Source: Bacteroidota bacterium (GTDB lineage: Bacteria; Bacteroidota; Ignavibacteria; UBA10030; SZUA-254). From it: DNA of 64,000 nt. The stretch spans positions 360 to 64,359 of the forward strand of contig DASQAZ010000113.1 in the NCBI GenBank assembly GCA_035635475.1. Direction: 5' to 3'. Both the position numbers and the translations under genes were made by a program. Positions within the stretch are counted from its first letter, which is position 1. Every line of letters starts with the position of its first letter. This document shows, in pieces, positions 4,279 to 18,500 of the stretch. The notes below the pieces were generated by a model. That model was not told where the DNA came from, searched no databases, and was given only the letters and a program-made list of their open reading frames with translations.

Positions 4279-6729
4279 GTGATTCGTTCTCGACGTTTTT
4301 GCATCAACGTTATACTCATTTCAGCCGCACTCCTTGGACGGGCCGCAATCGTTCACGGCCAGGTCTCCGGAAGGGTCAGCAAGATCGACATCGGGACCTT
4401 CACACCGGGCAACCCCCTCACCATCCAGGTCGAATTCTCCAACACGGCCGATCTCGACAGGGTAGAGATCGCCTTCCGCCAGTTCGGGCAGCACGACTAT
4501 AAGCGGGCAGAGATGGCTCTCGAGGGTCACACCGCGACCGCCTCAATCCCGGCGACAGAGCTCGTTCCGCCGTTCATCGAATATTATATCATCCTCTATC
4601 TTCGGAACGCCCCCACAGCCGAAACTTACCCTCTCGAAAATGCCCAGGAACATCCCTTGCGGGTGGATCTCCAGGGAACAGAATCGGGCGAGAACGCCCA
4701 GATTACTATTTTAAGCCCCGAGCCGAACGAGCGTCTCCGGAGGGAAGACGTCCTGATCTCGTTCGTCGTTTCCCCGGCCGATTCAACGCTCGACCCGAAG
4801 GCGACGAGAGTGTACCTTGACGGGCTGGATGTCTCGGGGAAAACCATCGTCACGGACCTGCTGTATGTGCTCAGGCCGGAGAATCTGTCTATTCCGCTCG
4901 GGGCCGGGAATCATGTCGCACGCGTGGAGCTCGTCGACAGGCAGGGGAAAACCGTTACCGACCGGGTCTGGAACTTCGGCGTTTTAGAAGCGGGGAATTA
5001 TGTCGAGGCCCCCTCACCCTGGCAGTACCATTACGGCGCCGTGCTTGAAACCCGGAATGAAAATATTGCCGGCGACGTCACGCCGTACAACCGCGCGACG
5101 CTGAATGCGAACGGCACATACCAGGAATTTCGCTTCGACGGGAAGCTCTATGCCACGAACGAAGAATCCGACCGGCGCCAGCCCCAGAATCGATTCTACC
5201 TCGGCGCCCAATCACCCTGGGCCCGGATCGGATACGGCGACAGCTACCCGTCGACGTTTCCCGAGTTGATCATGAGCGGAAAGCGCGTGCGCGGTCTCAA
5301 TGGAAGTCTCATGCTCGGCGCATTCAACCTGGATGTGGCGCACGGCGATATTCTGCGGCGGATCGAGAGCGACACGGTTAAGACATTTCCCGGCGACAGT
5401 CTTACCGCAGAGCAGGGAAGGGATTCGACCGGGCACTACGTGCTGTACGATCCCGGCACAGATCGTTGGGCGCAATTGAGAAGCGGAACGTTCAACCGCG
5501 AAATCACGATCGTCCATCCGAGCTTCGGCAGGGAGAACGCGCACATCGGCTTCACGTACCTGAAGTCGGCCGACGACGTGAACTCGATCCGGTACGGAAC
5601 GAGGCCGGAAGAGAACCTGGTCATCGGGAGCGATTTGACGCTCGCATTCGACCGGCACAACGTCGAAATCAACGGCCAGGCGGCGATCAGCGCGACGAAC
5701 CGCGACATCAGTCATGGGACATTCACCGATGCGGATATCGATTCGACATTTAAACCCCCCACGTACAGCGACGACGACCGGACCAACTTTCGACAGATAA
5801 GGGATCTTGTCTCCCGATTCATCACCGTCAACTCAAATCTCGTGCCGCTGTCGCTGAAAAAGCTTCAAACGCTCGCCTACGAAGGAGGATTGAATCTGAA
5901 CTACTTCGATAACTCCATCCGGTTCAGTTATATCCGTCACGGAGAGAGTTTCGAATCGTTCGGTCAGCCGTTTCTCCGCACGGATGTTGTGGGTTATAAC
6001 ATTTCCGACCGCGTGCGGCTGATGGAGAACAGAGTTTTTCTCTCGGGGGGATTCGAACGGCTCCAGGACAATACCGCGAACACAAAGGCCGCGACGACGA
6101 CGGGCACGACCGCCAATATCGGAGTGTCCTGTTTTCCACGGACCGACTTTCCCAATGTCACGGTGGCCTACCTTTTTGCCTCAAACGTGAACGACCGGAA
6201 CCTCTCGGACACGCTCTATGCCGTCGATGATCAGACGAACCGCGTTCTCATTCAACTCGGGAAGGAATTCACGTTCGGTGCGCGCCACAGCGCCAACCTG
6301 GGCATCGGCACATCGGTGAGGAATGACAATACGGTGAAACATCTCGATACGCGCAATACCACCGTCTCCCTCAGCACGAGCTCGACGTTCGAGATTCCAC
6401 TCCAGACTTCGCTGAGCATCACGGTCAATTCGAGCAAGTTTGTCACAGGGCTTGGGTCGTCGGGCGGAGAGATGACGCTCGGCTATACGACGCTCTACGG
6501 CAGCGCGCAGTACCGCCTCGCCGGTGACCGGCTCCAATTGACCGGATCGTTGAGCCCCACGTTCGGGGACATCGAACGGGTGCTCGTGAACGCCGGCGCC
6601 CAATACCGTATCATGCCGAATCTGAGCGCACAGGGGCAGATGTTTCTATTCTTCAATACGAAGCTGTTCGGAAGCTCCAATCCCACGAACGACGCAGTCT
6701 GGAGCCTGATTCTCCGCCTCGAGGTTTGA
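4279..6729 (+). CDS. large secreted/outer-membrane protein, function unknown
   Basis: 816-aa ORF with a GTG start and signal peptide (ILISAALLGRAAIVHGQ). The C-terminal half has alternating beta-strand-like segments rich in Y/G/S/T/N, suggesting a beta-barrel. No family recognised. Confidence 0.5.
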   Translation: MIRSRRFCINVILISAALLGRAAIVHGQVSGRVSKIDIGTFTPGNPLTIQVEFSNTADLDRVEIAFRQFGQHDYKRAEMALEGHTATASIPATELVPPFIEYYIILYLRNAPTAETYPLENAQEHPLRVDLQGTESGENAQITILSPEPNERLRREDVLISFVVSPADSTLDPKATRVYLDGLDVSGKTIVTDLLYVLRPENLSIPLGAGNHVARVELVDRQGKTVTDRVWNFGVLEAGNYVEAPSPWQYHYGAVLETRNENIAGDVTPYNRATLNANGTYQEFRFDGKLYATNEESDRRQPQNRFYLGAQSPWARIGYGDSYPSTFPELIMSGKRVRGLNGSLMLGAFNLDVAHGDILRRIESDTVKTFPGDSLTAEQGRDSTGHYVLYDPGTDRWAQLRSGTFNREITIVHPSFGRENAHIGFTYLKSADDVNSIRYGTRPEENLVIGSDLTLAFDRHNVEINGQAAISATNRDISHGTFTDADIDSTFKPPTYSDDDRTNFRQIRDLVSRFITVNSNLVPLSLKKLQTLAYEGGLNLNYFDNSIRFSYIRHGESFESFGQPFLRTDVVGYNISDRVRLMENRVFLSGGFERLQDNTANTKAATTTGTTANIGVSCFPRTDFPNVTVAYLFASNVNDRNLSDTLYAVDDQTNRVLIQLGKEFTFGARHSANLGIGTSVRNDNTVKHLDTRNTTVSLSTSSTFEIPLQTSLSITVNSSKFVTGLGSSGGEMTLGYTTLYGSAQYRLAGDRLQLTGSLSPTFGDIERVLVNAGAQYRIMPNLSAQGQMFLFFNTKLFGSSNPTNDAVWSLILRLEV

Positions 6730-8926: not shown

Positions 8927-9475
8927 TTAAAAGGAAAGTGAAGAGAGCAGCGTCTGCTGCGCGGTGAACATTCTGGTGATCTCGCCTGCCGATCCCGGAC
9001 TCTTCACCGGCACTGCATCGCACTCGTAGTACCTTCCCCGGGCTGTAAAGACGACGATGCGCATGAACCTCCCCCCGGTTGAGACTTCATAGCTGCAAAA
9101 CCTGGTTCCCTTCATCTCAAACGATTTGGGTGATGCCGAGACTTCAGCGCCTTCCGAACGGTGAAGGCCCGCGCTGATGTGAGCCAGCAGCTCGAGCCCC
9201 TCCTTCTCGACACGGGATGTGGAGAGGCGGTCGAGCGTCAGCTCCTTAATCCCGATTGAGGCGGAAAGGTCATCTTTGACCAGCCAGGCCACCACGGCGG
9301 GGATCAGCGTGTCCTCCGTCGAGGAAAACCAGCCCCTGGGAATTCTTCCTCTGAAGACACCGTCGCGTGAGCGGAACATTTGTTCCGTGAGGGGGTAATC
9401 GATCCCATAGGGAAGCGATGCGGCGCAGGATATGCATAACAGCGCGGCGAGAAGCGAAACAACGTATTGCTTCAC
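8927..9475 (-). CDS. hypothetical lipoprotein
   Basis: Lipobox-like N-terminus (LLAALLCISCAAS). Its start overlaps the upstream gene's stop by 4 nt. No family recognised. Confidence 0.5.
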   Translation of the reverse strand: MKQYVVSLLAALLCISCAASLPYGIDYPLTEQMFRSRDGVFRGRIPRGWFSSTEDTLIPAVVAWLVKDDLSASIGIKELTLDRLSTSRVEKEGLELLAHISAGLHRSEGAEVSASPKSFEMKGTRFCSYEVSTGGRFMRIVVFTARGRYYECDAVPVKSPGSAGEITRMFTAQQTLLSSLSF

Positions 9476-14516: not shown

Positions 14517-14607
14517 GCTGGACTCACCATTGAGGGCGGATCAAGACAGAAGTCAGGGACGCACACTGGTTGTGGTAAGAGAATATACCAAGAAGGATGA
14601 AGGGAAT

Positions 14608-14615
14608 CAAGGAAG
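14608..14615. repeat. left copy of 8-bp target-site duplication CAAGGAAG
   Basis: An identical octamer abuts the outer end of each terminal inverted repeat (14608-14615 and 18433-18440). Confidence 0.7.
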
Positions 14616-14631
14616 GGTAGTGTCTCAGTTT
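14616..14631. repeat. left terminal inverted repeat GGTAGTGTCTCAGTTT
   Basis: This is the perfect reverse complement of 18417-18432. The similarity resumes (AAAATGCTT) after a 17-nt insertion on the left side. Confidence 0.8.
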
Positions 14632-14655
14632 GAAAATTAATAATCGGGAAAATGC

Positions 14656-14684
14656 TTGACCGGATAAGGAAGGTTTGCTATATT
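14656..14684 (+). promoter_or_regulatory. sigma70-like promoter just inside the left IR (TTGACC-17 nt-TATATT)
   Basis: TTGACC lies at 14656-14661, followed by a 17-nt spacer and TATATT at 14679-14684. AGGAGA (~14699) and the ATG at 14713 follow. Confidence 0.4.
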
Positions 14685-14712
14685 CCGAGCACACATTCAG
14701 GAGAGAACCCTT

Positions 14713-14910
14713 ATGCCGACCAAAATCACCGGGACGCCAGTTTATACAGGACACGGTTTCAAAATCTACGTCGGGATTCCCTCAAAGCCCAAAAAAAGGG
14801 GAAAGTCAAGAATCTGGATTTCAATTAGGCAGGATGATCCCAAGGAATGGCGCATCTATGAATCGCTGAGCTATGCGCAGGGTGCCGACGTTCAATTCGT
14901 GAAGGATTAA
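14713..14910 (+). CDS. hypothetical small protein (65 aa), transposon passenger
   Basis: The ORF is preceded by an AGGAGA Shine-Dalgarno sequence and the IR-proximal promoter. No family recognised. Confidence 0.35.
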   Translation: MPTKITGTPVYTGHGFKIYVGIPSKPKKRGKSRIWISIRQDDPKEWRIYESLSYAQGADVQFVKD

Positions 14911-14919
14911 GTCTCAGCA

Positions 14920-15150
14920 ATGAAAAAACCGAAACGACCCCGCGACACTAATCAGCTTGCGAAATTCATCGTAGACCTCTCAACCGGAGAGGCAGTCGAA
15001 CCCTCACCTCCAGAATCCACGAAAAACCCTGCCGCCGTCGCATTAGGTAGATTGGGAGGCTTAAAGGGAGGGATAGCAAGAGCCAAAAAACTTAGCGCGA
15101 AACGTAGAAGTGAAATTGCTAAACGAGCTGCAAAAAAACGGTGGGGTTAG
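14920..15150 (+). CDS. small basic protein (76 aa) with Lys/Arg-rich C-terminal motif
   Basis: N-terminus KRPRDTNQLAKFIVDLSTGE and C-terminus ALGRLGGLKGGIARAKKLSAKRRSEIAKRAAKKRW. From memory, this pattern recurs in small proteins of mobile or TA-associated loci. The start is 9 nt after the upstream stop. Confidence 0.45.
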   Translation: MKKPKRPRDTNQLAKFIVDLSTGEAVEPSPPESTKNPAAVALGRLGGLKGGIARAKKLSAKRRSEIAKRAAKKRWG

Positions 15151-15156
15151 GTTGTT

Positions 15157-15453
15157 TTATCTGTTATGCGTATCGAGAATTTCTATGAAGTGAATTTCAT
15201 TCGCTGGAATATCTGGGTTTAGATCATCTCGTAATCTAAAGATTATCCTATCTTTTCCCCTGCCTCCCCCTCCTGTGCCTGGTATATCGGCACTTCTGCT
15301 TCCAGAATATTCATGCTTTAACCGTTTTGCGTGAAGGGCTTGTGGATTCTCACAAAGTCTATCGCATAGCTCCAGAATCTTGTCCTTCTGATCACAAAAA
15401 TCGCCGTCTAATTGTTCATCAAAAAACTCTGTGTGGACTGGAACTAACGGCAT
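15157..15453 (-). CDS. RelE/ParE-superfamily-like toxin (98 aa from the internal Met)
   Basis: The C-terminal pattern KRLKHEYSGSRSADI...GKDRIIFRLRDD...EIHFIEILDTHNR resembles the RelE/ParE core. The Met at 15453 lies 11 nt downstream of the upstream gene's stop. The listed ORF 15157..15558 would overlap that gene. Confidence 0.5.
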   Translation of the reverse strand: MPLVPVHTEFFDEQLDGDFCDQKDKILELCDRLCENPQALHAKRLKHEYSGSRSADIPGTGGGGRGKDRIIFRLRDDLNPDIPANEIHFIEILDTHNR

Positions 15454-15464
15454 CGATGCACGTT

Positions 15465-16121
15465 TCAGGAACGTGCATATACGAGGCGACTTTTGGATGC
15501 CTTTTCGAAATCGGCGCGATTTGAAGGACTCAGAGCAATCGCCAACGTATCCATCCAATCGTCCGGGATTGAGATAGTAAGTTCTGATTCAGGTTGATCA
15601 AGCACCTTAGTAAAGTGGCGGTGTATGGGGGTTTCTCTAACAGTTAATTCTCTATTAGGTGCTTCTATGGTCGGGAATTTCATGTCATAGACAAGGCTCG
15701 TTAATCGGGAAGCTCGGAGGTTTGCAAATTCTCTCACCACATTGATCAAACACTCGGAAAGAAACCGATTTTCAGGAATTCCTTGCATCACTTCTTCGAT
15801 GAAACTCTTCACCAAATCCTGAGCACGTTTATTCGTGTTAGAAAGGAAATGCTTATCTCTTTTCATCAATCCAATCTTATGAAAATCATCGACAGCCGTG
15901 TAAATACCCGTGGACATTGGGCCTTTTTGATGTCGATAAAACTCAAGTGAGAATGCCTTTTTCCGCGCAAGAAATAAAGGCATAGCCACAAGAAACGATA
16001 ATTTTTGGACTTTCAACATCGACTCTAAAGTGGATCCTTGAGAAGTCAAAGAAAACAGTGACAATAGAAGCATCTTGTCTATGGTCACTTCTTCGGGGGT
16101 TCTATTTATCTCGTCACGCAT
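15465..16121 (-). CDS. Panacea (DUF4065/SocA-like) domain antitoxin candidate
   Basis: LKVQKLSFLVAMPLFLARKKAFSLEFYRHQKGPMSTGIYTAVDDF matches the remembered DUF4065 core pattern (KLqKLlY...f.A...GPv...vY). It lies immediately upstream of a small toxin-like ORF. Confidence 0.45.
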   Translation of the reverse strand: MRDEINRTPEEVTIDKMLLLSLFSLTSQGSTLESMLKVQKLSFLVAMPLFLARKKAFSLEFYRHQKGPMSTGIYTAVDDFHKIGLMKRDKHFLSNTNKRAQDLVKSFIEEVMQGIPENRFLSECLINVVREFANLRASRLTSLVYDMKFPTIEAPNRELTVRETPIHRHFTKVLDQPESELTISIPDDWMDTLAIALSPSNRADFEKASKSRLVYARS

Positions 16122-16160
16122 CTTTCGGAATTAATCCTTGACTTTTGCCCAAAAGTTTGT

Positions 16161-16200
16161 ATTATAAAAAAGGTGATCGAACCCATATTCGATCACCTTT
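16161..16200 (-). promoter_or_regulatory. 13-bp perfect inverted repeat next to a minus-strand TATAAT box (candidate TA operator or terminator)
   Basis: AAAGGTGATCGAA (16169-16181), a 6-nt spacer, then TTCGATCACCTTT (16188-16200). The minus-strand TATAAT is at 16166-16161, about 40 nt upstream of the antitoxin ATG (16121). Confidence 0.5.
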
Positions 16201-16207
16201 AAAAGTT

Positions 16208-16281
16208 GCCGCCATAGCTCAAATGGTTAGAGCTAATGCCTGGTAAGCACATGATGGAGGGTTCGATTCCCCCTGGCGGCA
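16208..16281 (+). tRNA. tRNA-Thr (anticodon GGU), no encoded CCA, with stem mismatches
   Basis: Hand-folded cloverleaf. The acceptor stem GCCGCCA/TGGCGGC is a perfect 7 bp, the D stem is GCTC/GAGC, the anticodon loop is CT-GGT-AA, and the T loop is TTCGATT. The anticodon stem (AATGC/GCACA) has A.C and A.A mispairs. The T stem (GAGGG/CCCCC) has one A.C mispair. Confidence 0.7.
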
Positions 16282-16362
16282 CTGTTTTTAGTATAATCTA
16301 TTGTGTATACAAATGTCAATAAAAACTTGTCCACACCTTAAATACTTGATAATCATAGGGTT

Positions 16363-16833
16363 ATGACAAAACTCATGGGCCAAACTTTGAGCACCAAAGA
16401 AACTCTGGAAAGCCTAAGAAGCCAAATATTGCAAAAATGGCTTCCAATAGAGGTAATTGAGGAATTCGAGGCGATTCAGGGAGCGATCGATCGGCTAAGG
16501 GCCGCAAACAATTCGCACTCGAAAAAACAGCCAGAGAAAATCGCCAGTGTTCCCGCCGTACCCTCTACTCATAGCAAAGTGGTCGAAATTGCCCTGGAAT
16601 TGATTGATAAGAGGGAAGGTCATTCGGTGAGAAATGCGGAAATCATTGAATATGCTGAACAGAAGGGAATCGACATTGGCAAGGGGGAAGACCGGGATAG
16701 CACGGTTGGACGAATTTTGCATGATGAATGGGAGAAGAAACATGGCAAATTGCGCAAAGTAAACCGTGGTTTGTGGAATAAACGGGAAAAACCTCTCGCA
16801 AATCGCTCAGTATTTATCAAAGAACCCGCCTAA
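16363..16833 (+). CDS. hypothetical protein, possible winged-helix (Mrr_N/HARE-HTH-like) domain
   Basis: 156-aa ORF in the AT-rich island. The C-terminal half (VVEIALELIDKREGHSVRNAEIIEYAEQKG...TVGRILHDEW...LRKVNRGLW) resembles winged-helix modules ending in 'R..rG.w'. The call is weak. Confidence 0.4.
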   Translation: MTKLMGQTLSTKETLESLRSQILQKWLPIEVIEEFEAIQGAIDRLRAANNSHSKKQPEKIASVPAVPSTHSKVVEIALELIDKREGHSVRNAEIIEYAEQKGIDIGKGEDRDSTVGRILHDEWEKKHGKLRKVNRGLWNKREKPLANRSVFIKEPA

Positions 16834-16940
16834 GTCATCAAAAACAGCGTTTCCAAGTAGTAAGAGCCAGCCAATAGCTTCTTCGGCTGGTGGTATAAAT
16901 CACGGAATTCATTGTATCTTTCTTAAATTGAACTTTATGC

Positions 16941-16969
16941 TTGACTTCTCAAGCAAAAAGAGTTATATT
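16941..16969 (+). promoter_or_regulatory. sigma70-like promoter upstream of the transposase (TTGACT-17 nt-TATATT)
   Basis: TTGACT lies at 16941-16946, followed by a 17-nt spacer and TATATT at 16964-16969. It shares ATGCTTGAC with the IR-proximal promoter at 14653-14661. Confidence 0.4.
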
Positions 16970-16996
16970 GATGGTAGAACAAATGAGGCTTCTGCC

Positions 16997-17821
16997 ATGA
17001 ACAGACTTCCACTTGAAAAGCGCACTCAGATCGTTCACCTTCTCTGTGAGGGTAATAGTCTCCGTGCGACCTCGCGAATCGCAGATGTGTCGATCAACAC
17101 GGTCACAAAACTTTTGGTGGAGGTGGGCGCGGCGTGTCAGAAGTATCACGACGAGAACGTTCGTGGCCTGAAATCAAAGCGCGTAGAGTGCGATGAAATA
17201 TGGTCTTTCTGCTATGCGAAACAAAAGAACGTTCCTGATGGGATGCGGGGACAATTCGGCGTAGGTGACGTATGGACATGGGTCGGCCTGGATTCAGACT
17301 CAAAGTTAATAATCGCTTGGTTGGTCGGGAATCGGGATGCGGAATATGCCAACGTATTCATGCAGGACGTTGCAGATCGTCTTACTAACCGCGTCCAGTT
17401 GACTACAGACGCGCTGAAAGCGTATCTTGAGGCAGTAGAGGGGGCTTTCGGTGCGGATGTGGACTACGCGCAATTAGTGAAGATGTACGGCGAGGCTCCG
17501 GGCGGAGAAAAACGATACAGCCCCGCAATCTGCACTGGGATTAAGAAAGAACTCATCATAGGTAATCCGAAACACAAGCTTACATCCACAAGCTACGTCG
17601 AGAGACAGAATCTCACAATGCGGATGAATATGCGGCGGTTTACACGACTAACAAACGCCTTCTCCAAGAAAGTCCAGAACCATGCCCATGCCGTCGCCCT
17701 GCATTTCATGTATTATAATTTCGTTCGGATTCACAAGACGCTGCGAGTAACGCCCGCAATGGAGGCTGGAATAGCGAAGAAACTTTGGACGGTGGAAGAT
17801 TTGACGAGGCTTATAGATTGA
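16997..17821 (+). CDS. IS1-family DDE transposase (single ORF, 274 aa)
   Basis: N-terminal HTH (NSLRATSRIADVSINTVTKLL). The IS1-type catalytic pattern is CDEIWSF ... WTWVGLD ... GNR ... LTTDALKAYL ... YVERQNLTMRMNMRRFTRLTNAFSKK ... YYNFVRIHKTL. The ATG at 16997 is the likely start, and the track's upstream extension from 16766 overlaps the previous ORF. Confidence 0.85.
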   Translation: MNRLPLEKRTQIVHLLCEGNSLRATSRIADVSINTVTKLLVEVGAACQKYHDENVRGLKSKRVECDEIWSFCYAKQKNVPDGMRGQFGVGDVWTWVGLDSDSKLIIAWLVGNRDAEYANVFMQDVADRLTNRVQLTTDALKAYLEAVEGAFGADVDYAQLVKMYGEAPGGEKRYSPAICTGIKKELIIGNPKHKLTSTSYVERQNLTMRMNMRRFTRLTNAFSKKVQNHAHAVALHFMYYNFVRIHKTLRVTPAMEAGIAKKLWTVEDLTRLID

Positions 17822-17837
17822 TTCTCGGGGGGGTTAT

Positions 17838-18308
17838 TTGTACTTTGATCGATCTAACCTCACGTACCTACCTGTGACCTGGCTTTCTGATTTAGATAAA
17901 ATTGACCGCTCTAAAGTTGCTTTCGGGCTACTCGGATTCTTAGCAACCGTCGGCCCCGGATTTCTCATAGTCTATCTATTTAAGCCAGAATTGATTGAGA
18001 AACTCGATATAGTTAAGCTCACCATATTTTCTTGTGCCCTTACGACCCCATTGTTGATGACTAATGTCCTTGCCAATATTGTAATTCAATCCAAAGAGAA
18101 CAATGAGGGAGAAATTGCTTCCGTCATGGGAACAGCCTTTGCATCTCATATTATATCAAGTTACTCGGCCATTTTTCTTGCGTACTGGTTTCATTGGGAA
18201 TTTCTTCGATTTGTTTGGTGGGCGCTTGGCTTTAGCGTCGGAGTGTCGATTCTCATATATTTTGTAGAGAAACTGCCCGGAGAGAAGCATAAAAAAAATC
18301 CAAAGTGA
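17838..18308 (+). CDS. hypothetical 4-TM membrane protein, transposon passenger
   Basis: TTG start with four hydrophobic helices (e.g. VAFGLLGFLATVGPGFLIVYLF, FVWWALGFSVGVSILIYFV). No family recognised. Confidence 0.45.
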   Translation: MYFDRSNLTYLPVTWLSDLDKIDRSKVAFGLLGFLATVGPGFLIVYLFKPELIEKLDIVKLTIFSCALTTPLLMTNVLANIVIQSKENNEGEIASVMGTAFASHIISSYSAIFLAYWFHWEFLRFVWWALGFSVGVSILIYFVEKLPGEKHKKNPK

Positions 18309-18416
18309 CCTGTAAATATATCGTTCGACCTTCCGTCTAAGCTTTCCCCTACCCCTCCGAGAAGATTTTTCCCCGTAATTCTTACCTCTTCCGTACTTGG
18401 CTGTTCTAAGCATTTT

Positions 18417-18432
18417 AAACTGAGACACTACC
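18417..18432. repeat. right terminal inverted repeat AAACTGAGACACTACC
   Basis: This is the perfect reverse complement of 14616-14631. Confidence 0.8.
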
Positions 18433-18440
18433 CAAGGAAG
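18433..18440. repeat. right copy of 8-bp target-site duplication CAAGGAAG
   Basis: It is identical to 14608-14615 and directly abuts the right IR. Confidence 0.7.
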
Positions 18441-18500
18441 GCCCCTCTTGGAACGTCCGAAGATTTTGTTATATTGTCGAAGAAGTTTTCCAGATCAGGC

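Follow-up and report, generated by a model that had tools for sequence, protein, structure and literature searches.

A predicted Panacea and RelE-fold toxin–antitoxin cassette in an IS1-related cargo transposon

Introduction

In this study, two adjacent genes were analyzed in a 64,000-nucleotide stretch of contig DASQAZ010000113.1 (assembly GCA_035635475.1) from a member of the Bacteroidota; the whole stretch is referred to below as the window. The first gene encodes a protein of 218 amino acids (aa) with a divergent Panacea domain and the second a 98-aa protein with a predicted RelE fold. With a probability of about 0.7, the pair is interpreted as a type II toxin–antitoxin (TA) operon of the PanAT class (a Panacea antitoxin, PanA, with its toxin), in which a divergent PanA is combined with a RelE-like mRNase and which is carried as exchangeable cargo by an IS1-related transposon. 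Sequence comparison and structure prediction together indicate that the two genes very probably form a real TA pair, and toxicity of the 98-aa protein and its neutralization by the 218-aa protein are predicted.

Panacea is known to occur in at least 88 toxin-domain combinations, including mRNA interferases and the ParE domain, and many PanAT operons adjoin transposases, a proximity that has been speculated to drive the swapping of toxin partners (Kurata et al., 2022, PMC8832971). Because both features were reported there, the domain pairing and the transposon association found here are known in kind, and the suggestion of the initial annotation of this DNA that the pairing may be undescribed fails at the domain level. 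What is new is modest: an orphan toxin subfamily with an invariant Gly loop, a PanA branch that is very divergent and whose C-terminal domain has no name, and a well delimited cassette in an intact transposon.

Results and discussion

Arrangement and conservation of the gene pair

The pair consists of the following features.

15465–16121, minus strand: panA-like antitoxin gene, 218 aa, stop codon TGA at 15467–15465
15454–15464, minus strand: 11-nt spacer separating the stop of the antitoxin gene from the start of the toxin gene, an operonic arrangement
15157–15453, minus strand: RelE-fold toxin gene, 98 aa, ATG at 15453–15451, end at 15157

The earlier placement of a 98-aa open reading frame (ORF) 11 nt past the stop of the 218-aa gene was thus confirmed in position and strand, and the peptide motifs KVQKLSFLV, EFYRHQKGPMSTGIYTAVDDF, GKDRIIFRL, IHFIEILDTHNR and IPGTGGGGRG were all found in the two ORFs. 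An alternative 133-aa reading of the toxin from a TTG at 15558 was ruled out; the 98-aa reading is correct because every homologue is 95–98 aa long and starts with MP or MA.

Homologues of the pair were recovered at seven independent loci, namely the window, L001, L002, L003, L004–L006, L007 and L008–L010. Wherever a locus offered enough sequence, a toxin homologue came directly after the PanA homologue in the same order, and the pair is therefore more than a chance juxtaposition of ORFs. The gap between the two genes is 9–15 nt (L001–L004 and L007 all fall in this range), and in one case the genes overlap. Furthermore, the pairwise identities of PanA and toxin co-vary, at 57/68% between the window and L001, 46/44% between the window and L004, and 59/62% between L004 and L007. 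Among the closest relatives the toxin is somewhat better conserved than the antitoxin (61–72% versus 53–59%).

The family is extremely rare, with about a dozen members found among billions of proteins. A collection of 5.8 billion sequences yielded four PanA proteins with a single-sequence query and 11 with a profile, and when 1.84 billion cluster representatives were scanned exhaustively by HMMER with a four-sequence toxin profile, four small homologous clusters were obtained. Eight giant proteins (949–4138 aa) that also appeared in the latter scan were rejected as spurious repeat matches, each with several short matches to residues 63–97 or 14–59. None of three other species of the genus, and none of 57 additional relatives, carries the pair. 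A scan of genome contigs with the PanA alignment detected no relative in 185,579 species representatives, and the pair is likewise missing from the GTDB representative genomes. Such a patchy accessory distribution is as expected of a TA module.

The 218-aa protein has a divergent Panacea domain

The only Pfam family to which the 218-aa protein showed similarity was SocA_Panacea (PF13274), with an E value of 0.013; the gathering score of this model is 25.7 bits. When the 11 family members were scanned singly, eight matched PF13274 through the same residues (∼53–146, profile positions 17–108). The match of P0010, which is 46% identical to the window PanA over 98% of its length, reached 28.4 bits and lies above the cut-off, and that of P0012 reached 25.6 bits.

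The signature of the domain is a GPV motif in the second strand beside the central helix, and the described fold consists of a central helix ringed by helices together with a small three-strand sheet (Kurata et al., 2022, PMC8832971). In the window protein the signature is present as GPM (Gly67-Pro68-Met69). Gly67 is invariant in all 11 members, and position 68 is Pro in nine and Ala in two of them. The AlphaFold2 (AF2) model is of high confidence, with a predicted local distance difference test score (pLDDT) of 93.3 and a predicted template-modelling score (pTM) of 0.90. It contains a long central helix (residues 35–51) bearing the invariant KxQKLxFL, two short strands at 61–64 and 67–69, the latter formed by GPM, and surrounding helices, an order of elements that agrees with the described architecture of a central helix and a small sheet.

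A second, canonical PanA is encoded in the same genome (contig C92, L015:1411–2277; 195 aa, PF13274 76 bits). The alignment of the divergent family to this protein by hhalign was collinear over 118 columns and paired KLMKLLYL of the canonical PanA with KVQKLSFL, and GPVP with GPMS. The canonical gene is directly followed by a 92-aa ORF that matches no family and that by eye resembles ParE- or RelE-type toxins; kinship between this ORF and the window toxin family was rejected, as hhalign found no relation.

A Foldseek search with the AF2 model gave weak matches: the best in the PDB was chain 7yk3_B of the Mycobacterium tuberculosis DarT–DarG complex (E 7e-3, probability 1.0), and a BFVD protein annotated as Panacea was also matched (E 0.15, probability 0.8); no experimental PanA structure was among the matches. 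NCBIfam likewise gave a weak DarG match (E 0.049), the sequence-profile search of the PanA family against PDB chains gave no significant match, and PADLOC and PHROGs gave no match for the 218-aa protein. The antitoxin family alignment is shallow (11 sequences). Taken together, these results identify the 218-aa protein as a true, if divergent, member of the Panacea-domain proteins, with its core at about residues 30–150. The resemblance to the Panacea/SocA antitoxin domain proposed in the initial annotation was borne out in this way, mainly through the eight matching homologues, the score of P0010 and the GPM motif.

Beyond this core, residues ∼150–215 form an extra extension that is confidently folded in the model, with three short strands and two helices, and that carries the invariant residues Glu178, Trp189, Asp191 and Thr192. 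No Pfam model matched this extension. By analogy with Phd-C, PAD1 and ZBD, which have been described as add-ons to Panacea (PMC10440598), it is a candidate toxin-binding element.

Neutralization could also be indirect, with PanA serving, in the manner of SocA (type VI), as an adaptor for proteolysis that brings the toxin to ClpXP or Lon rather than binding it stoichiometrically. SocA has the same domain, PF13274 being named after it, and the possibility was left open by Kurata et al. (2022, PMC8832971). The same study found that ClpXP and Lon were not needed for nine validated PanA proteins, and direct binding agrees with an operon that places the antitoxin first and with the presence of a folded C-terminal extension, which makes proteolytic delivery the least probable of the alternatives considered here, with very little weight.

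The 98-aa protein has a RelE-like fold

No match was found for the 98-aa protein in Pfam, NCBIfam, PADLOC or PHROGs. The best traces among family members, none of them significant, were to PF05016 ParE_toxin (E 0.032, in two of nine members), TIGR02385 (RelE_StbE; E 0.12) and TIGR00053 (YafQ; E 0.083), and among PDB chains the toxin profile reached HigB-2 at E ∼1, which is also not significant. Of the domain assignments proposed from the sequence, PF13274 could therefore be supported by profile comparison, through the homologues of the sub-threshold window protein, but RelE/ParE could not.

The likeness of the 98-aa protein to RelE/ParE was instead substantiated by structure prediction. The toxin family alignment is shallow (nine sequences). 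The AF2 model (pLDDT 87.8, pTM 0.80) has the topology β1-α1-α2-β2-β3-β4, with strands at residues 4–7, 53–57, 68–74 and 86–94 and helices at 9–16 and 20–35. When this model was compared with the PDB using Foldseek, ranks 1–34 were occupied by the mRNases RelE, YoeB, YafQ and HigB2 and by their relatives HP0892/HP0894; RelE1 and RelE2 of M. tuberculosis and RelE of several organisms were among these ranks. The scores for RelE1, RelE2, YoeB, YafQ and HigB2 corresponded to E values of 2e-4 to 5e-3, a probability of 1.0 and template-modelling (TM) scores of 0.6–0.8 (up to 0.79). On the strength of the model, the protein is placed in the RelE/ParE superfamily on account of its fold, but in no named family defined by sequence.

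Pairwise hhalign of the toxin family against Escherichia coli YoeB gave a P value of 5.6e-4 and paired RLKHEYSGSRSADI with PLKHNLSGFWSRRI, and DRIIF with HRLVY; Arg69 of the toxin is thereby aligned with the catalytic Arg65 of YoeB and would correspond to it. In the YoeB query, the known catalytic positions Glu46, Arg65 and His83 fall where expected. The residues Asp56, Arg65, Gly66, Arg69, Phe72, Phe89 and His96 are invariant in the toxin family. By position, His96 would be the counterpart of His83 of YoeB or His87 of YafQ, and Asp56, Arg65, Gly66, Arg69 and His96 would together fit the active site of an mRNase.

The Gly-rich stretch, which had been singled out as an unusual insertion, forms the β2–β3 loop of the model (Pro58–Lys67, PGTGGGGRGK) and has a lower pLDDT of 68. 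Compared with YoeB, it is indeed inserted into the β2–β3 hairpin, but it is no unique oddity: HMMER aligned it with the KGKGKRGG loop of Vibrio cholerae HigB-2, and a basic Gly-rich loop at this position is thus a known variation. The sequence RSADIPxTGGGGRGKDR is invariant in the four closest homologues, and in more distant ones the loop is 2–3 residues shorter with GRG retained.

RelE and ParE share one fold, and a reading in which the pair is still a PanAT but the 98-aa protein poisons DNA gyrase has some support. The ParE structures 5ceg_B, 5czf, 6xrw, 8c24 and 7r5a were present in the Foldseek list (E 0.02–0.05), the sole Pfam trace was that to ParE_toxin, and ParE is the CDD domain that Kurata et al. 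(2022, PMC8832971) name as accompanying Panacea. The ParE structures, however, rank below the 34 mRNase matches, and hhalign finds YoeB with the catalytic Arg aligned. In addition, the toxin ends four residues past β4 with an invariant His, like YoeB and YafQ, whereas ParE toxins carry a C-terminal extension. A ParE-type gyrase poison is accordingly considered improbable.

The pair is cargo of an IS1-related transposon

The pair lies in an element with the following features.

14608–14615: left copy of the target-site duplication (TSD), 8 bp, CAAGGAAG
14616–18432, plus strand: complete IS1-related cargo transposon, 3,817 bp, recognized by its inverted repeats, transposase and TSD
14616–14635: left inverted repeat (IRL), 20 nt, beginning GGTAGTG
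14920–15150, plus strand: backbone gene for a 76-aa basic protein, its 3' end converging on the toxin gene 6 nt away
16208–16282, plus strand: tRNA-Thr(GGT), cargo, an extra and foreign copy
16363–16833, plus strand: 156-aa cargo ORF with a weak winged-helix hint and no homologue in the other loci
16997–17821, plus strand: IS1-family DDE transposase gene, 274 aa, ATG at 16997
17838–18308, plus strand: 156-aa hydrophobic cargo ORF, between the transposase gene and the right end
18413–18432: right inverted repeat (IRR), 20 nt, beginning GGTAGTG
18433–18440: right copy of the TSD, 8 bp, CAAGGAAG, ending 7 nt before the TTGGAA −35 box of an M14 peptidase gene

The inverted repeats read GGTAGTGTCTCAGTTTGAAA, with one mismatch between the arms, and the G+C content of the element is 39–48%, compared with ∼57% in the flanks. 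The transposase matched PF03400 with 24.5 bits (cut-off 24.1) and NF033558 with an E value of 1e-17 and 64.6 bits, below the 100-bit cut-off of that model; a 351-aa ORF from a GTG at 16766 was rejected as an upstream over-extension. Ends of the form GGnnnTG are a feature of the IS1 family (PMC6807381). With its IS1-type DDE transposase, its GGTAGTG ends and its TSD of 8 bp (8–9 bp expected), the element belongs with this family, and the proposal that the pair rides on an IS1-type element stands.

The transposase family was found in at least 594 loci of GTDB representatives from many phyla, of which the best 80 were compared. The end motif GGTAnTGnCTCA is conserved in these 80 loci. In total, 43 elements of 2.0–6.6 kb, including L001 and L004, were delimited, and a perfect 8-bp duplication was present in 38 of them. 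The passenger ORFs are enriched in pairs of HTH_3 and Peptidase_M78, PemK, MqsA, AbiEii-type AAA_21, Abi_2, GmrSD, STAND and AAA NTPases, and P63C, and the internal slot of the transposon family usually holds TA or defence genes.

Neither this PanA nor this toxin was found in any of the best 80 related transposon loci. Nevertheless, a homologous IS1-related transposase lies 0.1–4.3 kb from the pair in six of the seven independent PanA–toxin loci. In L001 and L004 the pair is located just inside one inverted repeat, and the L001 element has a TSD of its own (GGCTGCCG). Between the window and L016, which lacks the TA genes, the transposases are 78% identical; between the window and L001, for which the TA identities are 57/68%, the figure is only 44%. 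Conversely, the transposases of L001 and L004 are 73% identical and the TA proteins just 52/43%. Because the identity matrices of transposase and TA genes are incongruent, the cassette is regarded as exchangeable cargo that has moved between backbones. The idea that the pair is a core module of transposition was rejected, given its absence from the 80 related transposons and the incongruent transposase and TA phylogenies.

The recurrent proximity to the transposase could also mean that the pair is not an active TA system, the RelE-fold protein being a non-toxic one that has either degenerated or been recruited as a regulator or as a cofactor of transposition, and the Panacea protein serving as its partner in a transposon-specific function. 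The lack of conservation of the canonical YoeB general base in the toxin family, as well as the eight PanT toxins for which assays in E. coli gave no toxicity (Kurata et al., 2022, PMC8832971), would agree with this. The absence of the pair from the 80 related transposons, however, shows that it is dispensable for transposition, the incongruent matrices are as expected for cargo, the slot of sister elements carries classical TA and Abi genes, and Arg65, Arg69, His96 and the loop are under strong purifying conservation. An inactive pair is therefore held to be unlikely.

The cassette was found almost only on IS1-related transposons and has been exchanged between backbones whose transposases differ by more than 50%. 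A TA lineage specialized for such transposons can be imagined, in which the loop RSADIPxTGGGGRGKDR could confer a new target or trigger and the Panacea domain with its C-terminal extension could sense phage infection or loss of the element. The loop contains a Walker-A-like GxxxxGK, and nucleotide binding or a new RNA specificity could be examples of a target or trigger unseen in known RelE toxins. This specialization is speculative, and its chances are rated about as low as those of an inactive pair.

Other genes and insertion sites of the transposon family

Homologues of the 76-aa ORF are present at the IRL-proximal end in approximately 70 of the 80 related loci; it is hence part of the backbone rather than cargo and might be an accessory protein resembling InsA. 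In the TA-bearing elements L001, L002 and L007, an HTH_17 protein takes the place of the 76-aa protein, which they lack. The tRNA-Thr(GGT) of the transposon has two mismatched pairs in its anticodon stem and differs extensively from the chromosomal tRNA-Thr(GGT), which lies beside tRNA-Thr(TGT) on contig C55. In the same genome, a second transposase of the family (contig C29, 34739–35548) is 48% identical to that of the window and a fragment (contig C33, 50512–50790) is 51% identical; the end motif GGTAnTGnCTCA was not found on contig C29. In L004/L005 (840–6998), the cargo region is interrupted by an IS1595-family element, and there is also a DUF433 gene, after which L005 has a PIN gene; the L004/L005 element has no target duplication and abuts phage-like genes (Gp3-like).

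The family also shows a strong target preference, examined at the window (14582–14615 and 18433–18475), at L001 and at the loci L016–L094. Among 39 elements with a perfect 8-bp TSD, 26 have TTG exactly 7 nt beyond the TSD on one flank, compared with a background of ∼1.7% per flank, and the consensus of the flank, TTGAC(A), is like a −35 box. The window element lies 7 nt upstream of the M14 peptidase gene promoter, TTGGAA-16-TATATT. L001 (TSD at 4758–4765 and 9008–9015) is a different backbone with a related TA pair; it inserted into the orthologous divergent promoter region, where two −35 boxes are 4 and 7 nt away.

Upstream region of the pair

One further feature lies between the tRNA gene and the pair.

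16122–16200, minus strand: region upstream of the pair, with a TATAAT box near 16155 and a perfect 13-6-13 palindrome (16169–16200) followed by T6

The palindrome is situated between the tRNA antisense and the panA start, and it could be an operator, an attenuator or an insulating terminator. No counterpart was found upstream of panA in L001, L003, L004, L007 or L008, and the palindrome of L002 looks like the terminator of a transposase gene; a conserved operator was rejected on these grounds. Upstream of the palindrome and on the same strand as panA, a near-consensus promoter, TTGACA-18-TATACT, is located at 16290–16319 (minus strand). A transcript from this promoter would cross the tRNA antisense and then enter the hairpin.

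Points against the assignment and proposed mechanism

Several observations weigh against the interpretation as a PanAT operon with a RelE-like mRNase. The 218-aa protein itself lies below the gathering score of PF13274 (16.8 against 25.7 bits), and the toxin has no significant sequence-profile match to RelE, ParE, YoeB or HigB models. The general base of YoeB, Glu46, is aligned with Lys or Arg in the toxin family, so that the catalytic chemistry of the toxin is not directly readable. His96, the third residue from the end, lies outside the stretch aligned by hhalign, and its equivalence to the YoeB and YafQ residues is positional. Finally, autoregulation is unsupported because the upstream palindrome is not kept in the homologous loci.

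For a PanAT operon, the following mechanism is proposed. The promoter-proximal PanA would bind and neutralize the 98-aa protein encoded 11 nt downstream. The latter would be a ribosome-dependent mRNA endonuclease of the RelE/YoeB/HigB2 fold, and its Gly-rich β2–β3 loop would make contact with RNA or with the ribosome, an assumption also made for the Lys/Gly-rich loop of HigB-2. If PanA were lost or triggered, the toxin would be released and translation would be arrested. On a transposon, the freed toxin would penalize loss of the element (addiction), provide abortive defence, or both; the cassette most probably acts as an addiction or stabilization module, as an abortive-infection module, or as both.

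Relation to known systems

The window pair shares with described PanAT operons (PMC8832971; NetFlax, Ernits et al., 2023, PMC10440598) the Panacea core with a GPV-type motif, the bicistron of antitoxin followed by toxin, a toxin from a classical superfamily and the frequent adjacency of transposases. It differs in the divergence of its PanA branch, which is great enough to leave most members under the Pfam cut-off, in the conserved folded C-terminal extension of ∼65 aa (IPDDWMDTLAIAL), which is unlike any named Panacea-associated domain, and in a toxin family for which neither Pfam nor NCBIfam has a model.

Compared with the ribosome-dependent mRNases YoeB, RelE and YafQ (PDB entries 2a6q, 3g5o, 9g12 and 4q2u), the toxin has the same fold (TM 0.6–0.8), a β3 Arg aligned with Arg65 of YoeB and a His near the C-terminus. 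Its partner, however, is a Panacea protein and not YefM, RelB or DinJ, and relative to YoeB it has a seven-residue Gly-rich insertion in the β2–β3 hairpin and no equivalent of Glu46. HigB-2 of V. cholerae (PDB entries 5ja8 and 8a0x), at ranks 8 and 10 of the Foldseek list for the toxin model, has the same RelE fold and a Gly/Lys/Arg-rich β2–β3 loop, in which KGKGKRGG-SRIIY is matched to ktggRGkeRiiF, the consensus of the toxin family; the window protein reads GTGGGGRGKDRIIF there. The similarity in sequence is not significant (E ∼1), and HigBA has the toxin gene first and a helix-turn-helix antitoxin.

Among mobile elements, TA pairs integral to Tn3-family transposons (Lima-Mendez et al., 2020, as cited in PMC8832971) are likewise TA operons inside a transposon and presumed stabilizers. 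The carrier studied here differs in being IS1-related, in lacking a resolvase and res site, and in having a general cargo slot whose contents are exchanged between backbones. The IS1 family itself, exemplified by E. coli IS1 (PMC6807381), shares with the window element the PF03400 and NF033558 transposase, the terminal motif and the 8-bp TSD. In contrast, the window element is 3.8 kb long with ∼2.5 kb of cargo, its transposase is encoded by a single ORF, and its left-end small protein is the 76-aa basic protein and not InsA.

Conclusions

The practical value of the finding is modest: both proteins are missed by current profile libraries, and new models built from the family alignments would improve annotation. 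Of greater interest is the broader transposon family, which has a cargo slot and whose insertions lie 7 bp upstream of −35 boxes; it constitutes a separate finding. The PanAT network gains a subfamily of RelE-fold toxins that is rare and sequence-orphan, together with a Panacea branch that is very divergent. Furthermore, the cassette illustrates cleanly, in nature, how a PanAT can occupy the exchangeable slot of an IS1-related cargo transposon that is itself widespread, and as such it supports the published speculation that proximity to transposons drives the swapping of Panacea partners.

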